Shown: positions 6,541-29,588 of the stretch, one piece after another | Layout of the letters: every line of letters begins with the position of its first letter | Numbering within the stretch: the first letter of the stretch is position 1 | Virus record (IMG/VR): IMGVR_UViG_3300025133_000010 | Coordinates: 1 to 40,601 of that record | DNA from: a virus | Taxonomy: Duplodnaviria > Caudoviricetes | DNA: 40,601 nt | Direction: 5' to 3' (one strand) | Notes under the pieces: model-generated | What the model was told of the DNA's origin: nothing | Databases searched by the model: none | The model's input: the letters and a program-made list of their open reading frames with translations, nothing else | Program-made: the position numbers and the translations under genes

Positions 6541-7326
6541 ATGACTACCAAAGTGCCAACTGATATGTTGGCGGATGTAACCTCCAAAATTCTAACAACA
6601 TCATCTGCCACTGATGAAGGGGATGTTGTTCAACTCGACAGTGACGGCAAAATCAGGCCCGCGCTCCTTACAACTGGGACACTTGCCCAGGGTGACGTTC
6701 TCTATTACGACGGGTCTGACCTTGTGAATCTCGGTGCGGGCACCAGTGGACAATTCCTGAAGACTCAGGGGGCTGCTGCAAATCCAGTATGGGCTACTGC
6801 TGGTGGTGGAGCAATGGAGTTTATCTCGAAGAACACCATTGGTTCATCTGTCTCTGAACTTGTAGTGAACTTTGATGAAACCGAGTACAACAATTATATC
6901 CTCCGAATAGAGGGTCTGCATGGTGTCAGTGATGGTAATTTTCAGATGCGGTGGTCTAACGATGATGGAACCACGTTCTCTGACCAGAATTATGGCTTCA
7001 TGCAGGGCGGTGGTCGTGGTGGTTCGACATTTGATACAGGTCAAAATGCGTCTTCCTATGGTCTTTTAACCCCTACAGCGTGGAATGATGCGGGTGCAAA
7101 ATTATCAGCAACGCTCAACTTCACTGTAACATCTGGCGATGACAACAACGAGGTTGCATATTGGTGGACGGGATACTGCTGCCAAACATCCTCAAACTAT
7201 CAATCAATGGTAACTGGTGCCATTGCGGTTGTAGCAGCAGACTACAACACCGCATTTGAACTCAGTAACTCTGGGGGCAACATTGATGAAGGTGTTGTTA
7301 TCCTCTACGGCCTTAAAGAAAGTTAA
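6541..7326 (+). CDS. Tail-fibre-related structural protein
   Basis: GDVLYYDG...LGAGTSGQFLKTQG..ANPVW fibre-type repeat and a beta-rich C-terminus ending LYGLK. Located in the fibre cluster. Confidence 0.7.
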   Translation: MTTKVPTDMLADVTSKILTTSSATDEGDVVQLDSDGKIRPALLTTGTLAQGDVLYYDGSDLVNLGAGTSGQFLKTQGAAANPVWATAGGGAMEFISKNTIGSSVSELVVNFDETEYNNYILRIEGLHGVSDGNFQMRWSNDDGTTFSDQNYGFMQGGGRGGSTFDTGQNASSYGLLTPTAWNDAGAKLSATLNFTVTSGDDNNEVAYWWTGYCCQTSSNYQSMVTGAIAVVAADYNTAFELSNSGGNIDEGVVILYGLKES

Positions 7327-7331
7327 ATCAA

Positions 7332-7541
7332 ATGAACGAAGAATTACTGCTGGCCCTGGGGAGGCTGGAGGGCAAAGTAGATTCCTTAATCACCTCCTTG
7401 GCTGTTCACGACGAGGAACTGAATCGCCTTGATCATCGAATTCGTAATCTCGAACAATCCAAAAGTTGGATGTTGGGGGCCGCTGCGGTCATTGGGGCTG
7501 CTGCGTCATTTCTCTTTCAATACATTAAGGCAGATCAATAA
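7332..7541 (+). CDS. Small coiled-coil protein with C-terminal transmembrane helix (XhlA-like or lysis-associated)
   Basis: Heptad pattern followed by WMLGAAAVIGAAASFLF. Translationally coupled to the next gene. Confidence 0.6.
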   Translation: MNEELLLALGRLEGKVDSLITSLAVHDEELNRLDHRIRNLEQSKSWMLGAAAVIGAAASFLFQYIKADQ

Positions 7542-8707: not shown

Positions 8708-8918
8708 GAAGGAACTGGGGAAGTTGCACGAAGCACTCTCGATGCTCCTGATGGAACGTATCGCTTCAGGCGAAGCTGGTTCAGGTGAACTCAGTGTTGC
8801 TCGGCAGTTCCTCAAGGACAACGGGATTGATGCCAACATCAACCAAAGTGAACCTCTGCTGAACTTGGCGAAGGTTCTCCCGTTTGATCCAGAGGCAGAG
8901 ATCCCAGAGTCCGCATGA
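8700..8918 (+). CDS. Terminase small subunit (T7 gp18-like)
   Basis: L..LH.........I.SGEA...EL.VARQFLKDNGI...LPF. Directly upstream of TerL. The real start is the ATG at 8700, inside the 8217 track ORF. Confidence 0.88.
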   Translation: MDKKELGKLHEALSMLLMERIASGEAGSGELSVARQFLKDNGIDANINQSEPLLNLAKVLPFDPEAEIPESA

Positions 8919-10603
8919 ACATCGACCCACGCCTCAAGGACTTCAGGAACTTCCTGTTTATAGCGTGGGATCACCTTGGTCTCCCTGACCCCACCCCGAT
9001 CCAATACGACATTGCTGACTACATTCAGTGTGGTCCTAAGCGTCGATGCGTAATGGCCTTCAGGGGCGTTGGTAAGTCTTGGATCACTTCTGCATTCGTA
9101 TGCCACCAGCTCCTGATGGATCCCACCAAGAACATCCTGGTGGTGTCTGCGTCTAAGCAACGTGCTGATGACTTCAGTACATTCACTTTGCGGTTGATCT
9201 CTGAGATGGAGATCCTGCATCACCTGAAACCTCACGAGACTCAGAGGAACTCCAAGATTGCCTTTGATGTTGGTCCTGCTCCGGCAAGCCACGCACCTTC
9301 GGTGACTTCCAAGGGGATCTCCTCACAGATCACAGGTGCTCGTGCAGACCTGATCATTGCGGATGATGTGGAGTCTTTGAACAACTCAGCGACCCAGATG
9401 ATGCGTGACAAGATCGGTGTTGCGGTACAGGAGTTCGATGCTGTTCTGAAACCAGAGGGTCATGTGATCTATCTGGGGACTCCTCAGTCTGAGCAGAGTC
9501 TCTACAACGAACTCCCAGACCGTGGATATGATGTGAAGATCTGGCCCGCTCGGAAGCCTACCGAGAAACAGGTGGTGGGTTACGGCCCCAGGATCGCCCC
9601 AACAATCCTTGAGATGGACCTTGAGGAAGGTGCCCCAACAGACCCCAAGAGGTTCAATCAGTTTGACCTCATGGAGCGTGAGGCGTCCTACGGGCGTTCA
9701 GGGTTTGCTCTCCAGTTCATGCTGGACACCACCCTGAGTGATGCTGACAGGTATCCTCTGAAGCTACATGATCTAATCGTGATGCGTCTGGATGCTGAGA
9801 ATGCTCCTGAGAAGGTGGTTTGGGCGGGGTCTCCTGAGTATGCCTATAAGGATATCCCGTGCGTTGGCTTCAATGGTGATCGGTATTACATGCCGATGGG
9901 GACCAACGGTGAACTCCTGAAGTATCAGGGATCCGTCATGGCGATTGACCCCTCTGGTCGAGGTGCTGATGAGACGGCCTATGCAGTGGTCAAGATGTTG
10001 AACTCTCAGCTCTTTGTCACAGCAGCTGGTGGGCTACCGGGGGGTTACTCAGAGGAGACTTTGAAGGCCCTGGCAGTGATCGCTAAGGAGCAGGAAGTCA
10101 ACGAAGTCTTGGTCGAATCCAACTTTGGTGATGGCATGTTCAACGCCCTTTTGACCCCAGTTCTCTCAAAGATCCACCGAGTCACGATCACGGAAGTTCG
10201 CCACAATATCCAGAAAGAACGACGCATATTGGATGTTTTAGAGCCTGTTATGAACAGGCACAAGTTGATCGTGGATGAGCGGGTCATCCGAAAGGACTAT
10301 GACTCAACCAAACATCTCCCGGCTGAGAAGGCCCTGAAATACCAACTCTTCTACCAGATGACCCGGCTAACCCGAGACAGAGGTTCATTGGCCCACGATG
10401 ACCGCCTGGATGTCCTCGCGATGGCTGCTCAGTATTGGGTGGATCAAATGTCCAGAGATGTTGATGAAGCAATGCACACACAACGCTCTGAGAAACTCAC
10501 AGAAGAACTAGAGCTATTCCAAGATCACTGCTTGGGGGGCTCACCAAGGAACTCCATGACATGGATGTCGAACTCCTCAGATCGTCCCTCGATGACTTCA
10601 TAA
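8915..10603 (+). CDS. terL: Terminase large subunit (T7 gp19-like)
   Basis: AFRGVGKSW Walker A, ARADLIIADDVE Walker B, IDPSGRGADET and HDDRLD nuclease motifs. Confidence 0.97.
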   Translation: MNIDPRLKDFRNFLFIAWDHLGLPDPTPIQYDIADYIQCGPKRRCVMAFRGVGKSWITSAFVCHQLLMDPTKNILVVSASKQRADDFSTFTLRLISEMEILHHLKPHETQRNSKIAFDVGPAPASHAPSVTSKGISSQITGARADLIIADDVESLNNSATQMMRDKIGVAVQEFDAVLKPEGHVIYLGTPQSEQSLYNELPDRGYDVKIWPARKPTEKQVVGYGPRIAPTILEMDLEEGAPTDPKRFNQFDLMEREASYGRSGFALQFMLDTTLSDADRYPLKLHDLIVMRLDAENAPEKVVWAGSPEYAYKDIPCVGFNGDRYYMPMGTNGELLKYQGSVMAIDPSGRGADETAYAVVKMLNSQLFVTAAGGLPGGYSEETLKALAVIAKEQEVNEVLVESNFGDGMFNALLTPVLSKIHRVTITEVRHNIQKERRILDVLEPVMNRHKLIVDERVIRKDYDSTKHLPAEKALKYQLFYQMTRLTRDRGSLAHDDRLDVLAMAAQYWVDQMSRDVDEAMHTQRSEKLTEELELFQDHCLGGSPRNSMTWMSNSSDRPSMTS

Positions 10604-10731
10604 AGGCGTGGGAGAAGTTCTTGTTAGATCAACTCACCACCGTGGAATTGACGGATGCCCTTGTGGATCATATCAAGGTCATTGACATACTGGCACCAGA
10701 ACCCACTGAGGGGGACGAGGAGGACTCCTGA
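10561..10731 (+). CDS. Hypothetical acidic protein, 56 aa (not in the ORF track)
   Basis: Manual translation MDVELLRSSLDDFIKAWEKFLL...GDEEDS*. AAGGA upstream; overlaps the end of terL. Confidence 0.5.
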   Translation: MDVELLRSSLDDFIKAWEKFLLDQLTTVELTDALVDHIKVIDILAPEPTEGDEEDS

Positions 10732-11070
10732 GAGCGTTCAAGCCTTCAGGAATGCAGACCTCCCTTGAAATATCCAAACGCCTTAGAAGCCAACTGAGAG
10801 TCTCTGAGAGGATCTAAGGATTCAGGGAGATTCTGGAGGGGTGGAGGTGTATTAGGGACACGTTCTGAAGAACAGAAGGTTCTTTGGAAGCGAAAGACTC
10901 AGAAGACTCAAGTGAACGCTTATCTGGACACGCAAGTGGACTAGGTTCATTTAGGTCTAGAGTTTCTCCCCCATTCACCTTCACGTTGATCACCAGGTTC
11001 TCATCCTCCTTGGTGGTCCGTGGGGGGGTTTGGGGGGGAAGCTCTAGATCTAGAAGATCTAAGTGAACCT

Positions 11071-11195
11071 ATTAAACTACTTAAAACTACTTAAAACTAC
11101 TTAAAACAATTTAGATATATCTAAGAAGATTTAGAGAGTCTTAGGTAATCTTAGGTAATTACTACTACATTACTACTACATTACTACTACATTAC
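11071..11195. repeat. AT-rich short tandem repeats in a non-coding region
   Basis: About 3 copies of TTAAAACTAC, 2 of CTTAGGTAAT and 3 of TACTACTACAT, in an AT-rich island after terL. Confidence 0.85.
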
Positions 11196-11282
11196 CTTTA
11201 TATTACCTCTATATAACTTATATAAGAATACATAGAAGTAATTCTTATATAAATAACCCAAAACAAATTAGGGGTAACTTCT

Positions 11283-11444
11283 ATGTGCATGCCTAATCCA
11301 CTTAACTTTGCAAAGTCTCCTTTACCTGCCCTTCGATGGATGAGCAAAGTGAACCCAATACTGAAGATGGGGCAGGACAAACATGATCGTGATGAAGGTG
11401 AACGGTTAGCCCGAGAAAGAACTTTGAAGATTCGACGGCAATGA
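11283..11444 (+). CDS. Hypothetical protein, 53 aa (not in the ORF track)
   Basis: Manual translation MCMPNPLNFAKSPLPALRWM...KIRRQ*. Its stop overlaps the next ATG (ATGA). Confidence 0.45.
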   Translation: MCMPNPLNFAKSPLPALRWMSKVNPILKMGQDKHDRDEGERLARERTLKIRRQ

Positions 11445-11815
11445 ACCTACACATTGGTCCTCTTCTGGTTCCTGTGGTCTATGAAGATCTTACCAAGGAA
11501 GAAACTTGGGGGGAATTTCAATGCCTACCGCATCCTCAGATTGCCATCAACAAAGATCTTCCAAGAAATATACAGGCACTGACAATCCTGCATGAAGTCC
11601 TTGAGTGCATCACGGAAATCTATGGGCTGAAGTTGTCTGAGGGAGATATCAGAACCCTGGAGATGTCCCTTGCAGATGCTGTGAAGAAGAATGCAAAGGA
11701 GTTCCAGACATGGGCCGAAGATCTAACCTCAAGTGGTCATACAGAATCTGGTTCAAAATTCAAAAGTGTTTCTGGGGGTTCTTTGGGTGTCTTGGGTTCT
11801 TCTATGGAACCTTGA
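11441..11815 (+). CDS. Small zincin-like protein with degenerate HExxH motif (HEVLE)
   Basis: WGEF......I.IN......QALTILHEVLECI resembles phage mini-metallopeptidases. Confidence 0.55.
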   Translation: MNLHIGPLLVPVVYEDLTKEETWGEFQCLPHPQIAINKDLPRNIQALTILHEVLECITEIYGLKLSEGDIRTLEMSLADAVKKNAKEFQTWAEDLTSSGHTESGSKFKSVSGGSLGVLGSSMEP

Positions 11816-11865
11816 GGATGATGATACTGCTGATGGAAAGGGTCCCGTATCGGGTGTATGTGTGA
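11710..11865 (+). CDS. Possible 51-aa membrane peptide (not in the ORF track)
   Basis: AAGGAG upstream. MGRRSNLKWSYRIWFKIQKCFWGFFGCLGFFYGTLRMMILLM... Overlaps the 3' end of the upstream ORF. Confidence 0.35.
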   Translation: MGRRSNLKWSYRIWFKIQKCFWGFFGCLGFFYGTLRMMILLMERVPYRVYV

Positions 11866-12058
11866 GGATGTGAAAACAAGAAGACGAAGTGTGTTGGATC
11901 GAACCGAAAACTTTCACTTCATGGTGTCTGTGGATGACACGGGAAGGCCAGTGGAATTCTTTGTTGTCGGGAGAGGCAAGACAGGTTCCCAACTCGACCG
12001 TGAACTTTATGAGATGGGTGTGAAGGTTTCACGGATGATGCGGGAGGATTTTGGTTGA
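11858..12058 (+). CDS. Stand-alone protein resembling the C-terminal (TSCPD-type) domain of class II ribonucleotide reductase
   Basis: VS.DDTGRPVEFF...GKTGSQLD......GVKVSR pattern. Confidence 0.5.
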   Translation: MCEDVKTRRRSVLDRTENFHFMVSVDDTGRPVEFFVVGRGKTGSQLDRELYEMGVKVSRMMREDFG

Positions 12059-12325
12059 AAAATCTGACAGGGTGCATCAAATGTAGTGCTAAGCATTGCC
12101 CCCCATGCCCCCTTCAATATCGCGCCCGCATCCTTGAATGATGCCACCCTCCCATCGAATCACCTACTACTGTTGTAGTTTCCACTGGACCTATGATCCA
12201 GTACACGGCTCGATTGTCGGCCATCCTGCCGTCGACTCCTTGAATGCCTGCCTCTATTTATTGGCAGGCATTGTTGGCGCGCGAAGAAATCTTCACCAAT
12301 TCTCCGGATTCTCTATTGCAGTCCG

Positions 12326-12353
12326 TGGACCTGCTCCGATATCTCGCTATGAT
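12326..12353 (+). promoter_or_regulatory. Putative host sigma70 early promoter
   Basis: TGGACC-N16-TATGAT, just upstream of the first early leader. Confidence 0.4.
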
Positions 12354-12401
12354 TCAACACGTCCGCAATGGTGCGGGCGAATACTTGAGGATGAAACAAT
12401 G
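12353..12401 (+). repeat. Early leader element, copy 1 (hairpin B plus GAGGATGA RBS)
   Basis: TTCAACAC-GTCCGCA-ATGG-TGCGGGC-N8-GAGGATGAAACAATG. Confidence 0.88.
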
Positions 12402-12701
12402 CTTTCACACTGCTTTCCTTCAGAGCCTTTGACTACCTTAGAGCATGCCAGCGACTGGTTGGTGGCGCTCTATGATGCTGGGTTGGTGTTCCACTTTGAC
12501 GACCCTCCACACAGTATTCACAACCAACACGGCCGGACGTTCACAGATGCGCAAGCGGACATCGTTGTGGCTCGCTTGGCTGAGTTCACAGCGCTTGCGG
12601 ATCGTCACGGGGTCTGTGTGTGGGAGCACGCCGATACTGTTACCGATTGGGCCGGCTCGTTGCGGGGGGGGTTCTTCGCCGCTACTGGAAACCGGGAATG
12701 A
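12399..12701 (+). CDS. Early hypothetical protein, 100 aa
   Basis: Start reassigned to the ATG at 12399, after the leader/RBS. Contains GLVFHFDD.P. Confidence 0.7.
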   Translation: MLSHCFPSEPLTTLEHASDWLVALYDAGLVFHFDDPPHSIHNQHGRTFTDAQADIVVARLAEFTALADRHGVCVWEHADTVTDWAGSLRGGFFAATGNRE

Positions 12702-12713
12702 TGGCAGCGAGTC

Positions 12714-12794
12714 TCCGCTCCACTGCCTGACGGTACTGGAGTGGATTCAACACGTCCGCAATAGTGCGGGCTGATTCATGAGGATGAACCAATG
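12714..12794 (+). repeat. Early leader element, copy 2 (hairpin A, hairpin B, RBS)
   Basis: TCCGCTCCA-C-TGCC-TGAC-GGTA-C-TGGAGTGGA-TTCAACAC-GTCCGCA-ATAG-TGCGGGC-N8-GAGGATGAACCAATG. Confidence 0.9.
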
Positions 12795-13037
12795 CTTACA
12801 TTGAAAGCAGTACCGAACTCTCCCGAACTCATCGTACCTTGCGTTGTTCGGATTGAACAATTCGCCCCGAATCATCCCGTCAAGGGTGGGTTCTATTATT
12901 GGTGGGCAGAAGGCATCGTGGAATTGTTCTGGCAGTCCCCTGACTCTTTGCGCCTTGACGATCCCGATACTGATTGGCGCGGACCATTTGAAACTGAGCA
13001 GGAAGCCATCGACGACTGCTATGGGCAGATGCCTTGA
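12792..13037 (+). CDS. Early hypothetical protein
   Basis: Follows leader copy 2. GG.YYW...GPFETEQEAI.D motif. Confidence 0.72.
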   Translation: MLTLKAVPNSPELIVPCVVRIEQFAPNHPVKGGFYYWWAEGIVELFWQSPDSLRLDDPDTDWRGPFETEQEAIDDCYGQMP

Positions 13038-13042
13038 TCTCC

Positions 13043-13122
13043 ACCGCTCCACTGCCGAAAGGTACTGGGGCGGTTTCAACACGTCCGGAATTGTCCGGAC
13101 CGATACTTGAGGATGAACAATG
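13043..13122 (+). repeat. Early leader element, copy 3 (hairpin A, hairpin B, RBS)
   Basis: ACCGCTCCA-C-TGCC-GAAA-GGTA-C-TGGGGCGGT-TTCAACAC-GTCCGGA-ATTG-TCCGGAC-N8-GAGGATGAACAATG. Confidence 0.9.
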
Positions 13123-13563
13123 AAACCAGAGCAAACCATATTCAGACTGGACCTAGACCAGATACGCAAGGCTCTGCGGGATTCTCTGCATGAACGGATC
13201 CCTGTTGATGATTATATTGACGAAATGTACAGCGCGCGACCTATCACAGACTTCGAGATCGACGGGCAACACGAGATCCGCAGTATATATTCCTCCACGG
13301 GTAATCCCATTGTCTGCGAGATTGACAACACCGTCGATGCGCCTGAACAAGGTGACTATATACTCACGCCTTCGGGACCACTACTGGGCCTCACCAGTCT
13401 GTCAACCCATGAAGGCCAGCATATTGGAGAATATCAAACGACCGACGTAGCCTTGGAGATAGTCGCTAGTCGCATGGAGGCGGAGCAATTCTACCCCAAT
13501 ATTTGGTGGATCTCCGATCATGGCAACCTTTGGCAGATTGACATACACGGGTGCGAGATATGA
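13120..13563 (+). CDS. Early hypothetical protein
   Basis: Follows leader copy 3. C-terminal FYPNIWWISDHGN motif. Confidence 0.72.
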   Translation: MKPEQTIFRLDLDQIRKALRDSLHERIPVDDYIDEMYSARPITDFEIDGQHEIRSIYSSTGNPIVCEIDNTVDAPEQGDYILTPSGPLLGLTSLSTHEGQHIGEYQTTDVALEIVASRMEAEQFYPNIWWISDHGNLWQIDIHGCEI

Positions 13564-13706
13564 CTCACGATATCCTACTACTGATCGTCGCCTTCGGAAT
13601 TATCGCGTTGTGCGCGTGGTTCCTGAGCCTGGCGATAACACCCAACAAAGACGCCGGGAACTTCCCCGGATACCTTCCAACCGATGAGGATGATGAACAA
13701 TGTTAA
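13560..13706 (+). CDS. 48-aa single-pass membrane peptide (not in the ORF track)
   Basis: ATGA coupling. MTHDILLLIVAFGIIALCAWFLSLAITP...EQC*. Confidence 0.55.
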   Translation: MTHDILLLIVAFGIIALCAWFLSLAITPNKDAGNFPGYLPTDEDDEQC

Positions 13707-14059
13707 AGCAAACAATACGCTCCGCCGGGCACATGCGGGATGAGTTCCAACAGTATGACCGCGCCGATCAATTCTCATACCACGCTTATGACGCACTGTT
13801 CGAGTGGTACTGGGATCTTGGCGAAGATATGGGGACCCCGGCCAAGCTCGACGTAATCGGGATATGCTGTGACTGGTGTGAGTACGATAGTGTTTCGGAT
13901 CTCGCTGGTGATTACAGTATCGCCCTTGAGGATCTAGTGGACCCCGCTGATATCCCCGACATGGATGAAGATGAGATAGAGGAAGCGTACGCCGAAGAGT
14001 TGAATAATCGCGGCGTGTTGCTGCGGGTTGAAGGCGGAAGCGTACTATTCTCCGAATGA
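13700..14059 (+). CDS. Acidic early protein
   Basis: GAGGATGA RBS at 13686. FSY.A..ALF.....LDVIGICCDWCEY motif; very D/E-rich. Confidence 0.72.
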   Translation: MLKQTIRSAGHMRDEFQQYDRADQFSYHAYDALFEWYWDLGEDMGTPAKLDVIGICCDWCEYDSVSDLAGDYSIALEDLVDPADIPDMDEDEIEEAYAEELNNRGVLLRVEGGSVLFSE

Positions 14060-14137
14060 CCCTTCCCGATCTTCTGGCCTAACGGCCTGGGGATCGTTTC
14101 ACGGCTCTACCTTAGTTTCAAGTATGAGGATGCACCA

Positions 14138-14332
14138 ATGAACAAAGAAACACGGCTCACAACTGCGGCCCCTGAAATGCTCGATATGCTGTACACGGTT
14201 CTGCCTTATTTGGAAATGGCCCAGTCCGACGACTGCTACAAACCAGGCAAGGTGGCTGCTGCAGCCGCCCAGGCTTGGGTAGTCAGATCAGTGCGCGCTC
14301 TGATTGCCAAGGCGGAAGGAGGCGCAGCATGA
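14138..14332 (+). CDS. Early hypothetical protein (RL..AAPEML motif)
   Basis: GAGGATG RBS at 14126; common phage AAPE motif. Confidence 0.7.
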   Translation: MNKETRLTTAAPEMLDMLYTVLPYLEMAQSDDCYKPGKVAAAAAQAWVVRSVRALIAKAEGGAA

Positions 14333-14580
14333 AACCACTAAGTCCAACCGAATGGAGAAACGCCTCTTTCGACCCTATCGAGGAGCACATCAAAGACTTC
14401 GGATTAGAGGGGGATTTGAAGCTCACGGTAACTCGCATAGATAACAGGATCACTCACGTTAGTCTCGACGACTGGACCTTATATCACGATGAGGACGACT
14501 CATTAGTCAAGGATGATGCGTTAGTCCGCGATCTCTTCGATTCAACGTATCTACTGGACCTGGTGATCTCCCTTTCGTGA
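14329..14580 (+). CDS. Early hypothetical acidic protein
   Basis: Start reassigned to the ATG at 14329 (AAGGAGG RBS, ATGA coupling). Confidence 0.65.
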   Translation: MKPLSPTEWRNASFDPIEEHIKDFGLEGDLKLTVTRIDNRITHVSLDDWTLYHDEDDSLVKDDALVRDLFDSTYLLDLVISLS

Positions 14581-14595
14581 TCTGTTACAATACTT
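14580..14595 (+). promoter_or_regulatory. Extended -10 promoter, copy 1 (16-bp direct repeat)
   Basis: ATCTGTTACAATACTT contains TG-n-TACAAT. Identical copy at 14964-14979. Confidence 0.65.
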
Positions 14596-14605
14596 CCTAC
14601 AGTTC

Positions 14606-14635
14606 TTAGTAGTTAGTTAGTAGTTAGTTAGTAGT
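14606..14635 (+). repeat. 11-bp tandem repeat TTAGTAGTTAG, about 2.7 copies, in a 5' UTR
   Basis: Directly visible between the promoter and the GAGGATGA RBS of ORF 14647. Confidence 0.85.
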
Positions 14636-14646
14636 GAGGATGAACA

Positions 14647-14853
14647 ATGAACAACCAAGAAACAACAACCAGATGGTTAGCTGAGGAGTTGATTGACAGG
14701 ATAGCGGAGATGATTTTCGCGGAGATTCAACAGCACCCAAGTCAGCGAGTCGCATCGCGTGAGGGTGCGATTGAGATACTTGAGCAACTAATGAACAACG
14801 CAGACCCCGGATGGTACGGGAATCAATCTCTAGAGGGTGAGGATAGGGGGTAG
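14647..14853 (+). CDS. Hypothetical helical protein with its own promoter
   Basis: GAGGATGAACAATG start, downstream of the extended -10 element. Confidence 0.7.
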   Translation: MNNQETTTRWLAEELIDRIAEMIFAEIQQHPSQRVASREGAIEILEQLMNNADPGWYGNQSLEGEDRG

Positions 14854-14963
14854 TCGAGGCTAGACCACTACCGAAAAGGTGCTGGAGGTGGGAGGCGTGA
14901 GTATACAGCCCTAAATGGGTTCCGCCGACTACTGGGAAACCACCACAGCACCCTGCCCACCTT

Positions 14964-14979
14964 ATCTGTTACAATACTT
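14964..14979 (+). promoter_or_regulatory. Extended -10 promoter, copy 2 (candidate sRNA promoter)
   Basis: TG-T-TACAAT at 14967-14975; identical to 14580-14595. Confidence 0.65.
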
Positions 14980-14982
14980 TCC

Positions 14983-15045
14983 ACATTAGTTGTCATCCTC
15001 GCACCCCTCCTTGATTAGTTTCTTGGGGGGGTGCTTACTTTTCTT
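14983..15045 (+). ncRNA. Candidate trans-acting antisense sRNA (about 63 nt) with anti-GAGGATGA seed
   Basis: Lies between an extended -10 element and an intrinsic terminator. The unpaired 5' segment CATTAGTTGTCATCCTC is complementary to the GAGGATGA..AATG start regions. Confidence 0.62.
15001..15045 (+). terminator. Intrinsic terminator
   Basis: GCACCCCTCC-N14-GGGGGGGTGC stem followed by TTACTTTTCTT. Confidence 0.7.
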
Positions 15046-15119
15046 GATCTGGGTCAAGGCGCATTCTCTTCAACTAGGTCTTAGTTGTGAAAAGTTCCTG
15101 TTTGCTTATGGAGGCTCAC

Positions 15120-15389
15120 ATGCTTCTCAAATTAGTCGCCGGAGATCTTTTTATTGACTTCTTTGATCCACCGGCGCATGAATTTCACAAGTTTGAAACC
15201 TGGATTGAAGAGGATGAACGCCATGTCACCTGCTGTACCATTAGACTCATCTGGACCCCGCGAAAAAAGCTCAAACAACTCCGTGCTGCGAAAATTGCTC
15301 AGGCAAATCGAATGTTTGAGGACGATAGAGTCGGAGATACAAGCCCAAGCCTTATCCACTTTCCTGGTGACGGCAATACACGACCCTGA
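15120..15389 (+). CDS. Hypothetical protein upstream of, and overlapping, the MarR-like gene
   Basis: GGAGG RBS at 15110, then ATG at 15120. Confidence 0.5.
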   Translation: MLLKLVAGDLFIDFFDPPAHEFHKFETWIEEDERHVTCCTIRLIWTPRKKLKQLRAAKIAQANRMFEDDRVGDTSPSLIHFPGDGNTRP

Positions 15390-15600
15390 ACCAGTGGCGA
15401 TGGGAGCTATTGCCGCTCAAGTTGGGATTGCTCAGAGTTCGTGCTCACGTAATGTTGCTCTGCTTGGTATGATTCACAGGCGGGGCCACCCCGGTCATCA
15501 GTTAGTTGAGAGTTACGAAAACCCTCTCGATAGAAGAAATAAACTGGTGAAACTGACCCCGAAGGGTCGAAGACTTGCTCAGACATTGATAGGAGGATGA
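15223..15600 (+). CDS. MarR-like winged-helix transcriptional regulator
   Basis: IAAQVGIAQSSCSRNV..L HTH and LV...ENP.DRR.KLVKLT.KG wing. Start is the ATG at 15223 after GAGGATGAAC (alternative GTG at 15283). The same position before int is seen in marine temperate T7-like phages. Confidence 0.85.
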   Translation: MSPAVPLDSSGPREKSSNNSVLRKLLRQIECLRTIESEIQAQALSTFLVTAIHDPEPVAMGAIAAQVGIAQSSCSRNVALLGMIHRRGHPGHQLVESYENPLDRRNKLVKLTPKGRRLAQTLIGG

Positions 15601-15602
15601 AC

Positions 15603-16637
15603 ATGAGCATCAAACAGAGACGATCTAGTTTCGAGGCTACGGTAATGCACCAAGGTGTTCGATATCGAAGATCATTCAAAGAGAAACTTGAAGCCCAGAT
15701 ATGGGAGGCTCAAGCGAGGGCTGACCTGATTGCTGGGAGAAGCCCGGAGGTATCACGACAAGCAGTTAGTCGTGGTCTTCCCCGAACTCTTCAGGAACTC
15801 AGTGACTACACCTACAAGACTGTGTGGGCTGGGACTCGAAGTGAGGAGACGGCCATCATCAACTCCAACGTGGTAGTTGAGACGATTGGGGCGAGTACAC
15901 CTGTGGGTGAGATCGACAAGGCCACCATCGATTTAGCGGTGGCTGAGTGGAAGGGTGTTGGGAACTCCAACTCTACTTGCAACAGGAAACTTAGTTCCAT
16001 CGGGAAGATGTTATCGGTTGCGGTGGAACTGGGGATCATTGATCGCAAGCCACCCATCAAGAAGTTCCGTGAACCTCAAGGTCGTATCCGCTGGTACACT
16101 GATGAGGAACAGAAGCGAATCACGCGGATGTTCAATCATCTTGGGGCACCTGAGTATGGTGAGATCATCCGGGTGCTTCTTGACACTGGTATGCGGTGTG
16201 GTGAACTCTTCAATCTGAAGTGGGAGGACATACAGGGGAACCTGATTGTCTTGAATGAGACCAAGAACTTCTCTCCGAGGTCTATCCCGATGACGGCTGT
16301 GACTGGTCGTATCATCAGTTCCCAGCAATCTTCTGTTGGCCCCTTCAAGTGGACTCACCTTGAGCGTACCCGAAGGATATGGAACAAGGTTCGGTATCAA
16401 CTGGGTTGGTTCGATGATCCTGGTGCTACCTTGCATGCTTGTCGGCACACCTTCATCAGTAACTTAGTTCAAGAGGGTGTACCGATTGCGATGGTGCAGC
16501 GACTTGCAGGTCACAAGACCATTCAGATGACCTTGAGGTACACTCACCTTGCTCCGAAAGATCTGGAGTCTGCTATTGAGAAGCTTGAAACTAGACGCAA
16601 CAATGTTGTAAGTCTAGTTGCAGAGCGTGTGGCATAA
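15603..16637 (+). CDS. int: Tyrosine integrase
   Basis: TGMRCGEL, LHACRHT, LAGH and TLRYTH catalytic motifs; adjacent attP. Confidence 0.95.
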   Translation: MSIKQRRSSFEATVMHQGVRYRRSFKEKLEAQIWEAQARADLIAGRSPEVSRQAVSRGLPRTLQELSDYTYKTVWAGTRSEETAIINSNVVVETIGASTPVGEIDKATIDLAVAEWKGVGNSNSTCNRKLSSIGKMLSVAVELGIIDRKPPIKKFREPQGRIRWYTDEEQKRITRMFNHLGAPEYGEIIRVLLDTGMRCGELFNLKWEDIQGNLIVLNETKNFSPRSIPMTAVTGRIISSQQSSVGPFKWTHLERTRRIWNKVRYQLGWFDDPGATLHACRHTFISNLVQEGVPIAMVQRLAGHKTIQMTLRYTHLAPKDLESAIEKLETRRNNVVSLVAERVA

Positions 16638-16710
16638 TTTGGTGGCAAATTGAGACGGGTGTGGCAGAATGAAACCACGCGACAACAGAAAAAATCCTTT
16701 ATTATCAAAG

Positions 16711-16751
16711 GCCCGCGTGGTGGAAATGGTAGACACGCAAGACTTAAAATC
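16711..16751 (+). other. attP core: 5' half of a tRNA-Leu(TAA), not a complete tRNA
   Basis: GCCCGCGTGGTGGAAATGGTAGACACGCAAGACTTAAAATC supplies the acceptor 5' strand, D-arm and anticodon loop CT-TAA-AA. Similarity stops there. Confidence 0.88.
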
Positions 16752-16768
16752 CCGTCTCAAACCTCCCG

Positions 16769-16812
16769 CCAGTGGATTGGTGTATAATCAGCAGTCCACT
16801 GGTATTCTTTAT
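16769..16812 (+). terminator. Putative terminator between the attP core and the RNAP gene
   Basis: CCAGTGGATTG-N12-CAGTCCACTGG stem followed by TATTCTTTAT. Confidence 0.5.
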
Positions 16813-16886
16813 CAACTATCCACGGATGGATGAGTTCTTCAAATTCTGAAACTTGTGGCACATAGTGTGGCACTGGGGATGCAAGG

Positions 16887-19280
16887 ATGCGACAAACGGA
16901 TCTTGAAAAAGAGATGGTGGATCTCGGGAAGCAGCGGTACTGGGCTTCCGTGTCACGGGGCCGGGAAAAAGGTACTGAGACATACTCACCAGCGGCGAAA
17001 CGTCTTCTCGGAGAATCGATAGAGACGCTTCGTGATGAGATCAAGCGGTGGATGCGGAACTCGTCGGATGGACCAGGGCGAAAGCACCGAGTTCTTCCTT
17101 ACTTTGAACTGATACCTCCTTCTGTCATGGCGGCGTTGACTGCTCGGACCGTCCTTGATGGGATCTCACAACAACGAACCCTTACATCCATTGCGATGAA
17201 GCTTGGGCAATATCTGGAGGATGAGCATAGAGCGAGGAAGTTGAAGGACGAACATCCTGGTTTATATCGTGATCTATTTGAGAGAACGAAAACCAATCCG
17301 TCCTACGATTCCACTCGACGACTTTGGTATAAGACCGCGCGAGCCAACGATATCTTTCTCCCAAAGTGGGGCGGCAAGGATCGGTGTGCTATTGGGTTGG
17401 TTCTGATCGAGTTGATGCGGACTGCCACTGGTCTCGTTGAGATTGAGACGGTGACGAACATCTTCTCTCGTTCCGTCACATTGGTGCGTGCAACTGAGTC
17501 ACTGTTGCATTGGTTGAAGCAAGCTCACGCATTCCATGAAATCTTGACTCCGGTGTATATGCCGATGGTTGTTGAGCCAAGCCCGTGGAAGAATATGTGG
17601 CAAGGTGGATACCTCAGTGATGAGGTTCGTCGGCGTCCCTTGGTGAAGACCTATGACAAGGGGTATCTGGAAGAACTCGACAACACTCACATGCCTGAGT
17701 TCTATAATGCGATCAATTCACTGCAAAAAACTAAATGGGAAATCAACGACGATGTTCTCCAGTGCATGATGTACTGTTATGAGAATAACTCAGGTGTTGG
17801 GGATCTCCCTGCGAATTGTGATCGTGAAATTCCCACACGCCCTTCAGATAAGGATTGGATCGACGAGGAGATTCAGAAGCAATGGAGGCGTGCTGCTAAG
17901 GAGGTTCACTCTCTAAACCAGCAGGATCGTAGTAAACGACTACACCTCACCAAAGTTTTATACATGGCTCAGAAGTTTTCGGATCAGCCCATCACGTTCC
18001 CCAAGAATTGTGACTTCAGATCCCGTGTATATGATGCTCCTGCTTACCTCAACCCCCAAGGACCTGACTGGGCACGCTCAGTTCTGAGGTTTTCAGAGGG
18101 CGACCCAATCGATACTCAGAATGATGCGAACTACCTTGGGGTACACCTCGCTAATTGCTGGGGGCTTGATAAGAAAACCATCGAGGAACGTCTGAACTGG
18201 GTGTGGGGCCACGAGGATCTATTCAAGGCAATTCACCAGGACCCGCTGGGAACCACCACGGAGTGGTGTAAAGCGGAGGAACCGTGGGGATTCCTTGCAA
18301 CTGCTATGGATATGGGGGAGTTCCTGTTGACGGGTTATGGACACGTATCGAAGATACCCGTTGCTCAAGACGCATCCAATCAAGGGCACCAGATTTACGC
18401 GATGCTGCTTCGGGATCCTGTCGGGGCTAAGTACACCAACGTCCTTCCTTCGGATCGTCCTTACGATCTCTATCAGCAGGTTGCGGATCTTGTCATAGAG
18501 AAGCTGAAGGTCTCCGATGATCCCCGTGCGGCTACTTGGCTGGCCTTCGGCATTGATCGGAGTACATGCAAAAGACAAGTTATGGTTGCCGTCTACGGGG
18601 GCACCCAGCAATCCTGCAAAGAGTACACCGCTCAGTGGTACTTCGATCTCACCAGAAGTGGCAAGCGGCCTAAATCATTCAAGGATCACCCGTTCAAGGC
18701 GTGCATCTTTCTGAGCAATCTCATCTACGAATCCATCGGAGAAGCTGTGCAGTCTGCACAGGCTGGGATGGACTGGCTGCGATCCGTCGCTGGGATCTGT
18801 ATGGAGCATGATGTTATCCCCATGTGGTCCACACCCACAGGGTATCTCGTCAAACAACTTTATGAGAAGCAAGCCTCGATGGAGGTGAAGACCAGCATTG
18901 GGCAGAAGATCCGCCGGCATCGCTTGAGGTTTGGCAAGGGGGATCTTTCACCGATGAAACATAAGAACTCGATTTGCCCGAATTTTGTTCATGGGTTGGA
19001 TGCCGCGTTGATGATGAAAACCACTAACCTAGCAGTACTTAACGATGTCACCCAGTTCTCCATGATCCACGATAGTTATGCGACGACCGCTGCTAAATCT
19101 GGGATGCTTTCCTCATGTCTTCGCCAGGCGAGCGTCGATATGTTTTCTGAGGATCTTATGGAAAATTTTGCGAAGCAGATAACACACCTGCTCCCCACTG
19201 GGGTAGAGTTACCCCCGATCCCCTACGTTGGGGGGTTGGAGATAGAGTCTGTATTCGATTCACAGTATTACTTTTCGTGA
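16887..19280 (+). CDS. T7-like single-subunit DNA-dependent RNA polymerase
   Basis: Motif A DASNQG, motif B RSTCKRQVMVAVYG, PNFVHGLDA and motif C IHDSY. Confidence 0.97.
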   Translation: MRQTDLEKEMVDLGKQRYWASVSRGREKGTETYSPAAKRLLGESIETLRDEIKRWMRNSSDGPGRKHRVLPYFELIPPSVMAALTARTVLDGISQQRTLTSIAMKLGQYLEDEHRARKLKDEHPGLYRDLFERTKTNPSYDSTRRLWYKTARANDIFLPKWGGKDRCAIGLVLIELMRTATGLVEIETVTNIFSRSVTLVRATESLLHWLKQAHAFHEILTPVYMPMVVEPSPWKNMWQGGYLSDEVRRRPLVKTYDKGYLEELDNTHMPEFYNAINSLQKTKWEINDDVLQCMMYCYENNSGVGDLPANCDREIPTRPSDKDWIDEEIQKQWRRAAKEVHSLNQQDRSKRLHLTKVLYMAQKFSDQPITFPKNCDFRSRVYDAPAYLNPQGPDWARSVLRFSEGDPIDTQNDANYLGVHLANCWGLDKKTIEERLNWVWGHEDLFKAIHQDPLGTTTEWCKAEEPWGFLATAMDMGEFLLTGYGHVSKIPVAQDASNQGHQIYAMLLRDPVGAKYTNVLPSDRPYDLYQQVADLVIEKLKVSDDPRAATWLAFGIDRSTCKRQVMVAVYGGTQQSCKEYTAQWYFDLTRSGKRPKSFKDHPFKACIFLSNLIYESIGEAVQSAQAGMDWLRSVAGICMEHDVIPMWSTPTGYLVKQLYEKQASMEVKTSIGQKIRRHRLRFGKGDLSPMKHKNSICPNFVHGLDAALMMKTTNLAVLNDVTQFSMIHDSYATTAAKSGMLSSCLRQASVDMFSEDLMENFAKQITHLLPTGVELPPIPYVGGLEIESVFDSQYYFS

Positions 19281-19955: not shown

Positions 19956-20326
19956 ATTCTCTTCTCCTCCAGATCCCAGTCACTCCTGTGCCAGCGAGTA
20001 GACCTCGCGTTTCCAAGTGGGGAACCTACTATGGAGCGCGCTACTCAAAGTTCCGCAAGGACGCAAAGCCCGCAGTGGAAGGAGCCTACGGGGGTGACCC
20101 GCTTCAAGGTGGTCTTGAGGTCCGCGCAATCTTTTATTGCAAACGGCCCAAGACCACGAAGCGGAGGGATCCGAGGGGGGATGTTGATAACTATGCCAAG
20201 GCGATCCTCGATTCTTGCAACGGTATTGTGTGGCAAGACGATGATCAAATCCTGAGATTAACCACAAGCAAGCGATGGGAGGATGAGTTTGGACCACGAA
20301 TCGAACTCCTCATTTCTGCGGCATGA
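19952..20326 (+). CDS. rusA: RusA-family Holliday junction resolvase
   Basis: PVPASRPR, DVDNYAKAILD...W.DD.QI. Confidence 0.9.
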   Translation: MNSLLLQIPVTPVPASRPRVSKWGTYYGARYSKFRKDAKPAVEGAYGGDPLQGGLEVRAIFYCKRPKTTKRRDPRGDVDNYAKAILDSCNGIVWQDDDQILRLTTSKRWEDEFGPRIELLISAA

Positions 20327-21899
20327 GGCATGCCCCGACTGTGGATCGAGGAACAACCTCGCTCGCTACGATGATGGTCACGGGTTCTGCTTTGGATGTG
20401 GGCGGTGGGAACCAGGCGACAACCAACAAGTTTCAGAGTACCGAGAGGATGACACGGTGCAATCAGCATTCATACAATCAGAGGCTCGCTTCATAAAGAG
20501 CCGTGGTCTCTCCGAGGAGACCTGCAAGAAGTTCGGGTACGGCATCGGGGAGTACAACAGTACACTCTGTCACGTTGCGAACTACCGTGGTGGTGACGGG
20601 AAGATCGTCGCTCAGAAGATACGACTACCTAACAAAGACTTCAGGATGCTTGGCAAGGCCACCGCGTTGTACGGTGAGCATCTCTGGAGGGATGGCGGGA
20701 AGTTCATCACAGTATGTGAGGGGGAGATAGATTGTCTCTCGGTCTCTCAGGCGTTTGGCAACAAGTGGCCTGTCGTGAGTATCCCCAACGGTGCGAAGGG
20801 AGCTGCGAGGGCCATCACCAGAAGCATCGAGTTCCTTGAGAAGTTCGATCACGTTCATTTCTGCTTCGATCAAGACAAGCCGGGTGTGGAAGCCGCTACC
20901 GAGTGCTCCTTGTTACTGTCGCCGGGGAAGGCGAAGATCGTCACACTGCCCTGCAAGGATGCCAACGAGTGTCTGGTTGAGGGCAAGGTCAAGGAGATGA
21001 TCAACGCGGTCTACGGTGCTCGCACCTACAGACCAGACGGGGTGATCATTGGTGAGGATCTCTGGGAACGGGTGATGACGGATCAACTGGTGGACTCCGT
21101 TCCGTATCCGTGGAGTGGTCTCAATGATCTCGCTCACGGTATCCGCCAAGGTGAACTCGTCACCCTTTGCAGTGGCACAGGGGTCGGCAAGTCTTCGGTG
21201 TGCCGGGAACTGGCGTACTGGTTGATGGGTGCTGGCAAGAAGGTTGGCTACATTGCACTGGAAGAGTCTGTCGAGAAGACCGCCAGGGCGATGATGGGTA
21301 TCTATCTGAACTGCCCTCAACATTACTGGGATTTTCCTGAAGAAAAATTAAAGGAAGCATTTGATGCTGCCATTGGGAATGATCGGCTGGTTCTCTACGA
21401 TCACTTTGGATCGATGGCTTGGGATAACTTGGTATCTAAGATCCGGTACATGGTTCTCCACCTCGGAGCCACCCACATCTTCCTCGATCATCTCAGTATC
21501 ATTGTCTCAGGTATCGGTGATGGTGACGAAAGACGAATGATTGATCATGCCATGACTCGCCTTCGGTCGATCACAGAAGAACTGGGGATCGCTCTGATAC
21601 TGGTTTCTCATCTACGTAGACCGGAAGGACGCGGCCATGAAGATGGTGCTCAAACATCACTTGCTCAACTACGCGGTTCTCACGCTATCGCTCAGCTCTC
21701 TGACATTGTTGTTGGCTTGGAGCGAGACCAGCAAGACGAAGACAACCCAAACGTCACGACTATCAGAGTTCTTAAAAATAGATTTTCAGGAGAATGCGGT
21801 GTCTGTTCAAACAAACTCAAATACGACCGAGAAACAGGAAGACTTGCAGAGTGGATTCGTTCGGACTCTGCTGAAGATCTATCCGAGATCCCTTTTTAA
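20283..21899 (+). CDS. DNA primase-helicase (T7 gp4-like), with probable internal start at GTG 20457
   Basis: C4 zinc finger CPDC...CFGC, TOPRIM EGEID, SGTGVGKS, LDHLS and LRGS motifs. Confidence 0.96.
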   Translation: MSLDHESNSSFLRHEACPDCGSRNNLARYDDGHGFCFGCGRWEPGDNQQVSEYREDDTVQSAFIQSEARFIKSRGLSEETCKKFGYGIGEYNSTLCHVANYRGGDGKIVAQKIRLPNKDFRMLGKATALYGEHLWRDGGKFITVCEGEIDCLSVSQAFGNKWPVVSIPNGAKGAARAITRSIEFLEKFDHVHFCFDQDKPGVEAATECSLLLSPGKAKIVTLPCKDANECLVEGKVKEMINAVYGARTYRPDGVIIGEDLWERVMTDQLVDSVPYPWSGLNDLAHGIRQGELVTLCSGTGVGKSSVCRELAYWLMGAGKKVGYIALEESVEKTARAMMGIYLNCPQHYWDFPEEKLKEAFDAAIGNDRLVLYDHFGSMAWDNLVSKIRYMVLHLGATHIFLDHLSIIVSGIGDGDERRMIDHAMTRLRSITEELGIALILVSHLRRPEGRGHEDGAQTSLAQLRGSHAIAQLSDIVVGLERDQQDEDNPNVTTIRVLKNRFSGECGVCSNKLKYDRETGRLAEWIRSDSAEDLSEIPF

Positions 21900-22218: not shown

Positions 22219-22234
22219 ATGATGGAGGATGGGA

Positions 22235-22417: not shown

Positions 22418-23244
22418 ATCTATTCGCGGGTATCGGAGGGTTCAGCCTTGGTCTCGAACGGACTGGGGGTTTCCAGACGGTTGCGTTCTGCGAGATTGAT
22501 AAGAAGGCTCAGTTGGTCCTCAAGAAGCATTGGCCTGGTGTACCTATCTACGAGGACATAAAGGATCTCACAAGTGAAAGACTGCAAGCAGATGAAATTA
22601 TTCCCGATGTCATCACCGGAGGATTCCCATGCCAAGACATCAGTGGAGCCGGAAAAGGAAAAGGAATTGTTGGGGAGAGATCCGGTCTCTGGTCGGAGAT
22701 GTTTCGACTCATCGGAGATGTACGGCCAACGTGGGCAATTATTGAAAATGTATCAGCCCTTCGATCTAAGGGACTTACCTTGGTCCTTCAAGATCTCTAC
22801 TCGGTCGGGTATTGCGCTGAATGGCATTGTATTCCCGCTAGTGCCGTTGGCGCGCCTCACCAGAGGGACAGGATCTGGATTATTGCCAACCCCAACAGCC
22901 AACAGCTCAATAGCTTGTTCAATGGAAGCAGCCAAGAAGGAAGCGGAGAGGTTACACCCACAGGGGGGGTACACTCTGGCAACCAAGGTAGCAACCGACC
23001 CAAGAACATGGTGGCCCACACCAGATGCGTCACCCCACAAGTATCGTCTACGGGGCGATTCCCAGCAATCCAAATCTTTGAACGGAGTTCATGGTGGGAA
23101 ATTGAACCCAACGTGGGTCGAGTGGCTGATGGGGTTCCCAAGCGGTTGGACAGACTTAAACAACTCGGCAACTCCGTAGTTCCCCAGATCCCCGAACTAT
23201 TAGGACGAGCTATTCTATCCACTAACGCATTACATGAAGGATGA
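22402..23244 (+). CDS. DNA cytosine-5 methyltransferase, alpha-type chain
   Basis: Motif I LDLFAGIGG, IV GGFPCQD, VI ENV, VIII HQRDRIW and X LGNSV. Confidence 0.93.
   Translation: MYRTLDLFAGIGGFSLGLERTGGFQTVAFCEIDKKAQLVLKKHWPGVPIYEDIKDLTSERLQADEIIPDVITGGFPCQDISGAGKGKGIVGERSGLWSEMFRLIGDVRPTWAIIENVSALRSKGLTLVLQDLYSVGYCAEWHCIPASAVGAPHQRDRIWIIANPNSQQLNSLFNGSSQEGSGEVTPTGGVHSGNQGSNRPKNMVAHTRCVTPQVSSTGRFPAIQIFERSSWWEIEPNVGRVADGVPKRLDRLKQLGNSVVPQIPELLGRAILSTNALHEG
22574..23179 (+). CDS. Nested alternative-frame methyltransferase beta-type chain (carries motif IX and PTP repeats)
   Basis: 201-aa ORF wholly inside the MTase gene, with LPTP/WPTP and GKLNPTWVEWLMGFPSGWT. Confidence 0.72.
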   Translation: MKDCKQMKLFPMSSPEDSHAKTSVEPEKEKELLGRDPVSGRRCFDSSEMYGQRGQLLKMYQPFDLRDLPWSFKISTRSGIALNGIVFPLVPLARLTRGTGSGLLPTPTANSSIACSMEAAKKEAERLHPQGGYTLATKVATDPRTWWPTPDASPHKYRLRGDSQQSKSLNGVHGGKLNPTWVEWLMGFPSGWTDLNNSATP

Positions 23245-29399: not shown

Positions 29400-29588
29400 A
29401 TGAAACCTGGAATTAAAACTACTGAGTTCTGGCTCGCTGCTGCTGCCACCGTTGTTGGTGGTCTCATGGCGTCTGGAGTCATCGCAGAGGATAGCGGTCT
29501 TGCTAAGGTCATTGGCATTGCTGCATCCGCTCTGGTGGCTCTTGGATACACAGGTGCGCGGCTTGCACTGAAGAAGAAGGTCAGCTGA
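29400..29588 (+). CDS. Putative holin (two transmembrane helices)
   Basis: KPG.KTTEFW, two hydrophobic helices and a basic C-terminus. GAGGTGA RBS. Confidence 0.65.
   Translation: MKPGIKTTEFWLAAAATVVGGLMASGVIAEDSGLAKVIGIAASALVALGYTGARLALKKKVS

Follow-up and report, generated by a model that had tools for sequence, protein, structure and literature searches.

T7-like phages are the textbook case of control by polymerases and protein inhibitors. As regards control by RNA, the CI RNA of phage P4 is related to the C4 RNA of P1 and P7, and RsaE, AbcR and the csRNAs are, like NmsR-A/B of Neisseria, bacterial small RNAs (sRNAs) that act against the Shine-Dalgarno (SD) sequences of multiple targets. 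C4 is described as a trans-acting phage RNA whose unpaired segments occlude the ribosome-binding site (RBS), with seed and target varying together and thereby setting specificity (PMC5320573), and NmsR-A/B lower translation through an unpaired C/U-rich motif on the SD of several mRNAs, the siblings having a common seed (PMC5362039); pairing over the RBS or SD thus hinders initiation in these characterised cases (PMC5320573, PMC5362039). Other phage sRNAs, namely Sar (P22), OOP and aQ (lambda), STnc6030 (BTP1), 24B_1, VpdS and PreS, tune lysis, lysogeny or exclusion by pairing; as far as the accessible text of a 2025 review goes, they either lie antisense to a single gene in cis or are linked to Hfq and have few targets or targets in the host, and none of the phage sRNAs covered there addresses a regulon via a private RBS tag (PMC12197685). 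For the temperate LUZ100-type phages a MarR-like protein has been proposed as repressor, and neither 'sRNA' nor 'small RNA' occurs in that paper (PMC10134795). The literature that we searched, which covered few subscription papers, contained no description of an anti-SD phage sRNA directed against early genes, and a search on translational shut-off of T7 early mRNAs returned no relevant paper.

Here we describe a promoter-seed-terminator cassette (unit B) in a T7-like phage genome, predicted to give a ~63-nt trans-acting RNA that likely blocks ribosome loading on the tagged early, MarR, integrase (int) and some replication mRNAs as a group, a reading to which we assign a probability of roughly 0.6. 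Unit B itself is a real, conserved and covarying element. Akin to C4, it is phage-encoded, predicted to act in trans and endowed with an unpaired, RBS-facing segment that covaries with its targets; C4, however, has three stems, is cut by RNase P and acts on an antirepressor operon, whereas unit B has a single stem, its own -10 and terminator, and ~12 unrelated predicted targets. No antirepressor was found among the PHROG matches of the genome, and it is early, MarR, int and replication starts that carry the tags. NmsR-A/B are chromosomal and face the generic host SD, whereas the targets of unit B have an extension particular to each lineage, which changes together with the seed. Cis-antisense action of the Sar or OOP type was considered and rejected, as unit B lies on the strand of its targets, with 7-10 perfect pairs and the targets 0.2-8 kb off. 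By analogy, unit B would work like C4 or a bacterial anti-SD sRNA while belonging to neither family.

The window, by which we mean the whole 40,601-nt stretch analysed, is a complete, circularly permuted 40.6-kb T7-like genome with direct terminal repeats. PHROG matches place terL at 8915-10603 and a block of small early ORFs at ~12400-14850, and further identify ssb, an endonuclease, a primase-helicase, a methylase, DNA polymerase (Pol), an exonuclease and the usual virion genes. A large internal virion gene spans the contig ends (~37760-40601 on into 1-2378), and a 33-nt repeat at the contig end marks the junction. The order of early genes, MarR, int, att and RNA polymerase (RNAP) is common to the window and the temperate T7-like phages LUZ100, HTVC019P and Pasto:

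15223-15600, plus strand, MarR-like transcriptional regulator (phrog_9665, E 2.4e-27; Pfam MarR_2, E 0.02, under the cut-off)
15603-16637, plus strand, tyrosine integrase (PHROG match; ATG at 15603)
16711-16751, plus strand, 5' half of a tRNA-Leu(TAA), between int and RNAP
16887-19280, plus strand, T7-like RNAP (PHROG match)

The MarR start is backed by a protein of the relative L084 that aligns from residue 1, and this gene, lying between unit B and int, speaks against the view of an earlier, sequence-only reading of the locus that the phage has no recognisable repressor. The half tRNA is likely attP, and a whole tRNA-Leu(TAA) is present between int and RNAP in 9 of 19 relative loci scanned. 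As a host query the half tRNA gave generic tRNA matches only, a host scan of genomes yielded nothing beyond an archaeal MAG contig that is probably mis-binned and a distant integrase from the Desulfovibrio group, and the nearest cultured-phage RNAPs have only ~35% identity. An ORF at 15087-15389, between unit B and MarR, has no annotation and no PHROG or Pfam match, and a similar frame is present in L018, L037 and L074. An ATCCAC motif occurs at 11296, 16818, 19285, 23217 and 29262, that is 5' of RNAP, ssb and Pol and near the capsid region; it is kept in relatives and is a candidate core of the phage RNAP promoter.

The sequence-only reading had placed an extended -10, a seed, a stem and a U-tract at 14967-15045, and all of these positions proved correct:

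14967-14975, plus strand, extended -10 TG-T-TACAAT (TG 14967-14968, T, TACAAT 14970-14975), predicted host sigma-70-type promoter of the RNA
14983-15045, plus strand, predicted ~63-nt small RNA (unit B), its start placed by the spacing from the -10
14983-15000, plus strand, unpaired 5' segment of 18 nt (CATTAGTTGTCATCCTC at 14984-15000)
14993-15000, plus strand, core seed TCATCCTC, abutting the stem
15001-15045, plus strand, intrinsic-terminator-like 10-bp stem (15001-15010 / 15025-15034) with U-rich tail (15035-15045)
14583-14591, plus strand, second copy of the extended -10, 5' of ORF 14647, in a 22-nt repeat 91% identical to the unit B promoter

All 18 bases of the 5' segment are free in the minimum free energy fold of 14983-15045 (-24.5 kcal/mol, z -5.5; none of 200 shuffles did as well), with unpaired probabilities of 0.7-1.0, and the minus strand folds worse (-18.1 kcal/mol). 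Taken alone, the -10-like match is at chance level for this genome (11 promoter-like sites against 17.5 expected); it is placed above chance because TGnTAnnnT is kept in 19 of 20 close loci, where its middle bases and the upstream DNA are variable and unit B as a whole is present in 20 of 20 at an identity of at least 69%. Over 10500-17000 there were three chance-level Rfam matches, none of them to c4, and no family for unit B; blastn of the unit against cultured phages gave 18 partial matches at chance level. A 9/12 promoter-like match at 15091-15063 on the minus strand, again at chance level, points back over unit B and could, if real, give an antisense decoy. The terminator loop (15011-15024) contains TTAGTT in the window's clade, and TTAG-rich repeats lie just 5' of several tags (window 14607-14635; L011 ~6985-7035 and 7360-7408), together a possible site for an RNA-binding protein.

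The earlier statement that the unit contains no ORF holds for its plus strand, save for a TTG-start frame of 55 codons beginning at 14990. On the minus strand, frames of 42 and 5 codons begin within the seed, one of them behind an AAGGAGG in the stem, as would suit the RBS of a small minus-strand gene. This explanation of the reverse copy is scarcely credible, as frames starting in the seed range from none to 73 codons across 11 loci with nothing common beyond the closest pair, the stem depends on G-U pairs, and its U-tract is on the plus strand. A T7 class II pause or terminator was likewise rejected: ATCTGTT, which we take to be its motif, occurs at 14580 and 14964, but is altered in L046, L049, L051, L052 and L077, which retain TGnTAnnnT.

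The complement of the seed, GAGGATGA, is found 13 times in the window against 2.9 expected (sd 1.7), a count that none of 100 shuffles reached. Eleven copies are on the plus strand, nine of them at a start or candidate start (those at 11814 and 17217 are not), and the two reverse copies, the unit B seed and a hairpin loop at 11001, are both unpaired parts of structured units. The earlier figure of about a dozen gene starts is thus correct for nine exact copies and is reached only with one-base variants (14126, 22225, 23237 and RNAP at 16875). The dominant start motif of the window is GAGGATG(A), and the tags (all GAGGATGA unless noted) are distributed as follows:

12387-12394, plus strand, tag before early ORF at 12399 (100 codons)
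12780-12787, plus strand, tag before early ORF 12792
13109-13116, plus strand, tag before early ORF 13120
13686-13693, plus strand, tag before early ORF 13700, with the best predicted duplex among starts (-17.8 kcal/mol)
14126-14133, plus strand, variant tag GAGGATGC before early ORF 14138
14636-14643, plus strand, tag before early ORF 14647
15210-15217, plus strand, tag before the MarR-like gene, inside an upstream ORF
15593-15600, plus strand, tag before the integrase ATG 15603
16875-16881, plus strand, weak tag GGGGATG before RNAP (6 perfect pairs and a G-U)
20279-20286, plus strand, tag at the primase-helicase start, not kept in L015 or L049
20445-20452, plus strand, tag before in-frame GTG 20457, a candidate internal helicase start (10 perfect pairs)
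22225-22232, plus strand, variant tag GAGGATGG before small HTH-like ORF 22235
23237-23244, plus strand, variant tag AAGGATGA before the Pol ATG 23247 (8 perfect pairs)
12322-12396, 12715-12789 and 13044-13118, plus strand, three copies of a 75-nt hairpin cassette ending in the tag

On window starts that were picked by hand with the motif known, at least 7 perfect pairs with the seed are formed by 8 of 9 early, MarR and integrase starts, 4 of 14 middle starts and none of 20 late starts (12 of 23 early and middle against 0 of 20 late, Fisher P 1e-4). Among 44 hand-curated starts the top 13 by duplex energy comprise six early genes, the internal helicase candidate, RNAP, ORF 22235, MarR, Pol, int and primase, and no virion or packaging start lies under -10.7 kcal/mol; in the genome at large, 5% of all 26-nt plus-strand windows reach -12 kcal/mol or lower and the two best lie in coding sequence, so that duplex energy alone is not start-specific. 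By local accessibility (0.2-0.6 unpaired), tags at starts could not be told from internal copies. The suggestion that the whole early and replication programme is addressed proved too broad, since RNAP has 6 perfect pairs only, the ssb, endonuclease, methylase and exonuclease starts carry no tag, and primase is a weak target whose tag is not kept in L015 or L049. The intra-primase tag (window 20445-20459; codons ~52-58 in L015, L017, L061 and L063) is clade-specific, GAGGATGAC versus AAGGATGCAC, and is followed by an in-frame GTG or TTG in the window's clade only. The 75-nt cassettes consist of one or two hairpins, a TCAACAC linker and the tag, and could be processing sites or units of early-gene recombination.

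The predicted seed-tag duplex spans the SD and extends to the start codon. Tagged starts pair with a canonical anti-SD at about -6 to -12 kcal/mol, and late starts have an ordinary SD, so the description of the tag as a non-canonical RBS is not supported: because tagged starts pair normally, we regard the tag as an SD core with a private extension of conserved spacer bases. An unusual host ribosome with a variant 16S tail was also considered, to which the tag would be fitted, the seed being incidental. This explanation is most improbable, given that the tag is at 0 of 20 late starts, some of which pair strongly with the canonical anti-SD (-16.4 kcal/mol at 29400), and that a single genome, L074, has two different tags. 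With the minus-strand frames and ATCTGTT not conserved, and the late genes arguing against a host-ribosome explanation, RNA-RNA pairing over the SD and spacer is left as the mechanism.

A second unit carrying the same seed, absent from the sequence-only reading, follows terL:

10950-11054, plus strand, unit A, a 105-nt hairpin with seed TCATCCTC at 11001-11008, mostly in the apical loop

Unit A folds at -68.3 kcal/mol (z -9.5) on the plus strand and at -42.7 on the minus strand, and G-U-rich counterparts are found in L015 (~6560-6650), L017 (~6010-6105) and L053 (~5075-5170). Its loop is TCATCCTC in the GAGGATGA clade and GTGCATCCTT in phages with the tag AAGGATGCAC, each matching best the starts of its own phages. 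No seed loop was seen after terL in the GGAGAAAC loci inspected, and five other terL loci (L096, L098, L101, L102 and L104) have a shorter form of the hairpin that lacks the seed loop, and this backbone may serve a purpose of its own, in packaging or processing.

The conservation of unit B was assessed by a terminator search, made without the seed, in the 1 kb before int of 69 integrase-relative loci, many of them near-duplicates. A hairpin with the seed directly 5' was found in 33 loci (13 of these from the distant GGAGAAAC group), a hairpin without it in 3, and no such terminator in 33. Across seven aligned loci the eight columns of TCATCCTC are invariant, while flanks and stem arms diverge; for the stem, a set of four sequences, leaving aside L046 (near-identical) and L051 and L077 (one-column shift), has 40 of 40 cells paired, with 4 of 10 pairs altered on both sides. 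The unit lies before MarR and int or before RNAP in relatives, and was not found in L066, L084, L058 or L053; the distant MarR relatives L001-L005 have no GAGGATGA unit. MarR is more dispensable, being present in 10 of 21 loci by tblastn and not found in L049, L015, L052, L031 and L075, which retain int. A complete relative, L158/G002, has no match to a tyrosine or serine integrase in a search run with a control, and keeps unit B directly before RNAP.

Other arrangements were seen before int in some lineages. L061 and L063 have a promoter, a generic anti-SD-like tract and, by eye, a possible pseudoknot in place of unit B. The succession of TGnTAnnnT, pyrimidine tract and possible H-type pseudoknot recurs before int in L017 (~9943-9975), L061 (~3983-4015) and L063 (~9598-9630), the first stem appearing by eye to be altered on both sides between L017 and L061/L063. 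Within the GGAGAAAC clade a small hydrophobic ORF runs at its end into the -10, or the -10 is missing (L060 and L018), and for this reason the seed of this clade may be an mRNA 3' end. The ORF 5' of the GGAGAAAC-clade seed has 25-29 residues ending in P-E-D/E (L018 ~1788-1866, L037 ~115-203, L074 ~4610-4688).

The dominant start motif is specific to each lineage, and the lineages separate on a terL tree (an RNAP tree was made in a quick version only). Tags that change with the seed across distant clades are GAGGATGA, CAGGAGAAAC, AAGGATGCAC, GAAAGGAA and AGGATTGAT; thus, GAGGATGA goes with TCATCCTC, CAGGAGAAAC with GTTTCTCCT before the terminator, GAAAGGAA with TTCCTTTC, CAAAGGA with TCCTTTG in L098, and AGGAGGA with TTCCTCCT in L093. 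The seeds of L098, L093 and L115 were located by searching for the complement and are not blind finds. A covariance model built from the GAGGATGA clade alone and run over 46 sources did find blind, before int of L102, a unit whose seed ATCAATCCT is the mirror of that phage's own tag AGGATTGAT; the model also matched L017 (minus strand) and L169. Two further loci, L099:14186-14266 and L106:8310-8386, have the promoter-seed-terminator layout with no matching tag among called starts and were left uncounted.

When starts were chosen by the canonical anti-SD alone, five GAGGATGA-clade seeds matched 3-5 starts of their own clade versus 0-1 in five GGAGAAAC genomes, and six GGAGAAAC seeds matched 3-7 of their own versus 0-1 in the GAGGATGA clade. 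Of 19 phages, 14 had a seed that exceeded its shuffles on their own starts (P<0.02), the failures being L074, L079, L115, L061 and L063, and over seven clade representatives the true assignment of seeds to genomes ranked first of 5040 permutations with 7-nt matches (P 0.0024 with 8 nt). Seed and int start change together in the GAGGATGA and GGAGAAAC clades and in L053, seed and Pol start in the window's clade only; the RNAP start, of the form GGGATGC, is a better fit to the seed of the AAGGATGCAC phages than to its own, and in the other clade a bulged GGACGAAAC stands in its place. On its GGAGAAAC backbone, L074 combines two early starts of the GAGGATGA type, a second seed TGTCATCCTC in the terminator loop and a separate sigma-70-like promoter 3' of the terminator. 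Thus the marks of a trans-acting sRNA that were found at unit B are a promoter and terminator, no conserved ORF, a conserved unpaired seed facing several starts, and covariation of seed and target, the last amounting to only ~5-7 independent changes with 5 of 19 seeds failing.

Could the cassette be an end-of-early terminator or a MarR-int leader, its seed an inverted remnant of a cassette or a protein site on DNA that works in either orientation, like a stoperator? Repeated cassettes ending in the tag do make up the early region, for which reason shared ancestry can explain part of the spread of the tag, and promoter-like matches are at chance level genome-wide. We nevertheless consider this highly unlikely, because the seed does not vary where flanks and stem arms do, and between clades is exchanged together with the tag, in some genomes at two places, because the tag is also on genes outside the cassettes (int, Pol and inside primase), and because the additional promoter of L074 follows its terminator.

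It is also conceivable that the pairing is real and its main outcome a different one, the RNA acting generally as an anti-SD RNA on host mRNAs, or guiding the processing or stabilisation of early mRNAs. All seeds are pyrimidine-rich and anti-SD-like, those of L061, L063, L079, L115 and L158 fit starts in several other phages to the same or nearly the same extent as starts in their own, and hairpin cassettes precede three tags. The window seed, however, matches 5 starts of its own genome and none in six other clade representatives, the canonical anti-SD used as a seed matched only 0-3 starts per genome, and the duplex would cover the SD up to the start codon, an arrangement that hinders initiation in known cases, all of which makes such an outcome quite doubtful. 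Since seed and tag changed together across lineages, the predicted RNA likely turns down the tagged genes as a group. The kept unit and the covariation thus support the core of the sequence-only reading, one phage RNA facing an RBS motif common to many of the phage's own genes, and the comparison with related genomes that it had proposed came out in its favour, with relatives keeping the unit and seed and motif covarying across clades.

Taken together, the most probable role of unit B is that of an RNA repressing the translation of multiple targets, with unit A as its late twin. Host RNA polymerase would make a discrete RNA from unit B, whose unpaired seed would pair over the SD and private extension of the tagged mRNAs, and this pairing, judging from the likeness to C4, Sar and the bacterial anti-SD sRNAs, would repress translation. 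T7-like phage DNA enters left end first, and with this order of entry unit B, at the far end of the early block, would be expressed after its targets, while late transcripts would supply the same seed again through unit A. The best-fitting purpose is a brake on the early programme, because the integrase-less L158 keeps unit B and unit A sits in the late region. A role in lysogeny is possible in integrase-bearing members, because the promoter is of host type and int is tagged; the same RNA could there damp int and incoming early genes in the lysogen, alongside MarR and not replacing it.

This differs from the purpose originally proposed, a master repressor of RNAP, int, primase-helicase and Pol that would maintain lysogeny and immunity instead of a protein. 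The host-type promoter within the MarR/int cassette, the steadiness of unit B relative to MarR (20 of 20 close loci versus 10 of 21 tested), an int start that tracks the seed and the precedent of RNA-based immunity in C4 of P1 and P7 (PMC5320573) all speak for it. Against this, MarR is present in the window phage, the RNAP start is weak and did not follow the seed, the twin unit A is in the late region after terL, and L158, without integrase, retains unit B, so that the master-repressor role is unlikely.

A joint reading, tentative and in our judgement somewhat short of even odds, is that a private RBS barcode marks a whole gene class that is switched off by one or two mirror small RNAs. In this T7-like group two RNAs would take part, one made from a host-type promoter where the early block ends and one in the late hairpin that follows terL, and the system would have been re-keyed at least 5 times. 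It would serve early shut-off and, in temperate members, RNA immunity whose specificity groups are set by the barcode; the SAS of cluster K phages, treated below, would find its explanation in the same logic. A regulon-wide RNA brake on translation would add to T7-like control a layer not found in the literature searched, and the seed-tag pairs would constitute natural orthogonal sets, of at least 5 keys, useful for multiplexed translational control. As opposed to the window, four cultured temperate T7-like phages (LUZ100, Pasto, ProddE and HTVC019P) have no common tag, no 7-mer being present in more than 2 of the first 10 starts.

The SAS of cluster K phages is an asymmetric SD-plus-extension element found at non-structural starts in one orientation, except for one reversed copy in each K1 genome, and the authors who described it left the matter of an RNA partner open (PMC3203893); its function is still given as unexplained in the accessible text of later papers (PMC11373665, PMC12699233). 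The window tag resembles it in its one orientation, its place at non-structural starts and its extension beyond the anti-SD pairing. The SAS belongs, however, to another phage group and has another sequence, its 13-bp consensus being absent from the window tag, and the available portions of these papers name no RNA partner for it. Within the 39.6 kb of the Adephagia genome that we examined, 16 SAS copies are forward and one is reverse, and the reverse copy (L170:38683-38695 = 58,682-58,694) has 9 of its 13 bases in the loop of a long hairpin in the gap between genes 92 and 93. This placement suggests the same logic, as a lead from one genome. Late transcription in Adephagia has been reported to appear to start in the same gap (PMC11373665).
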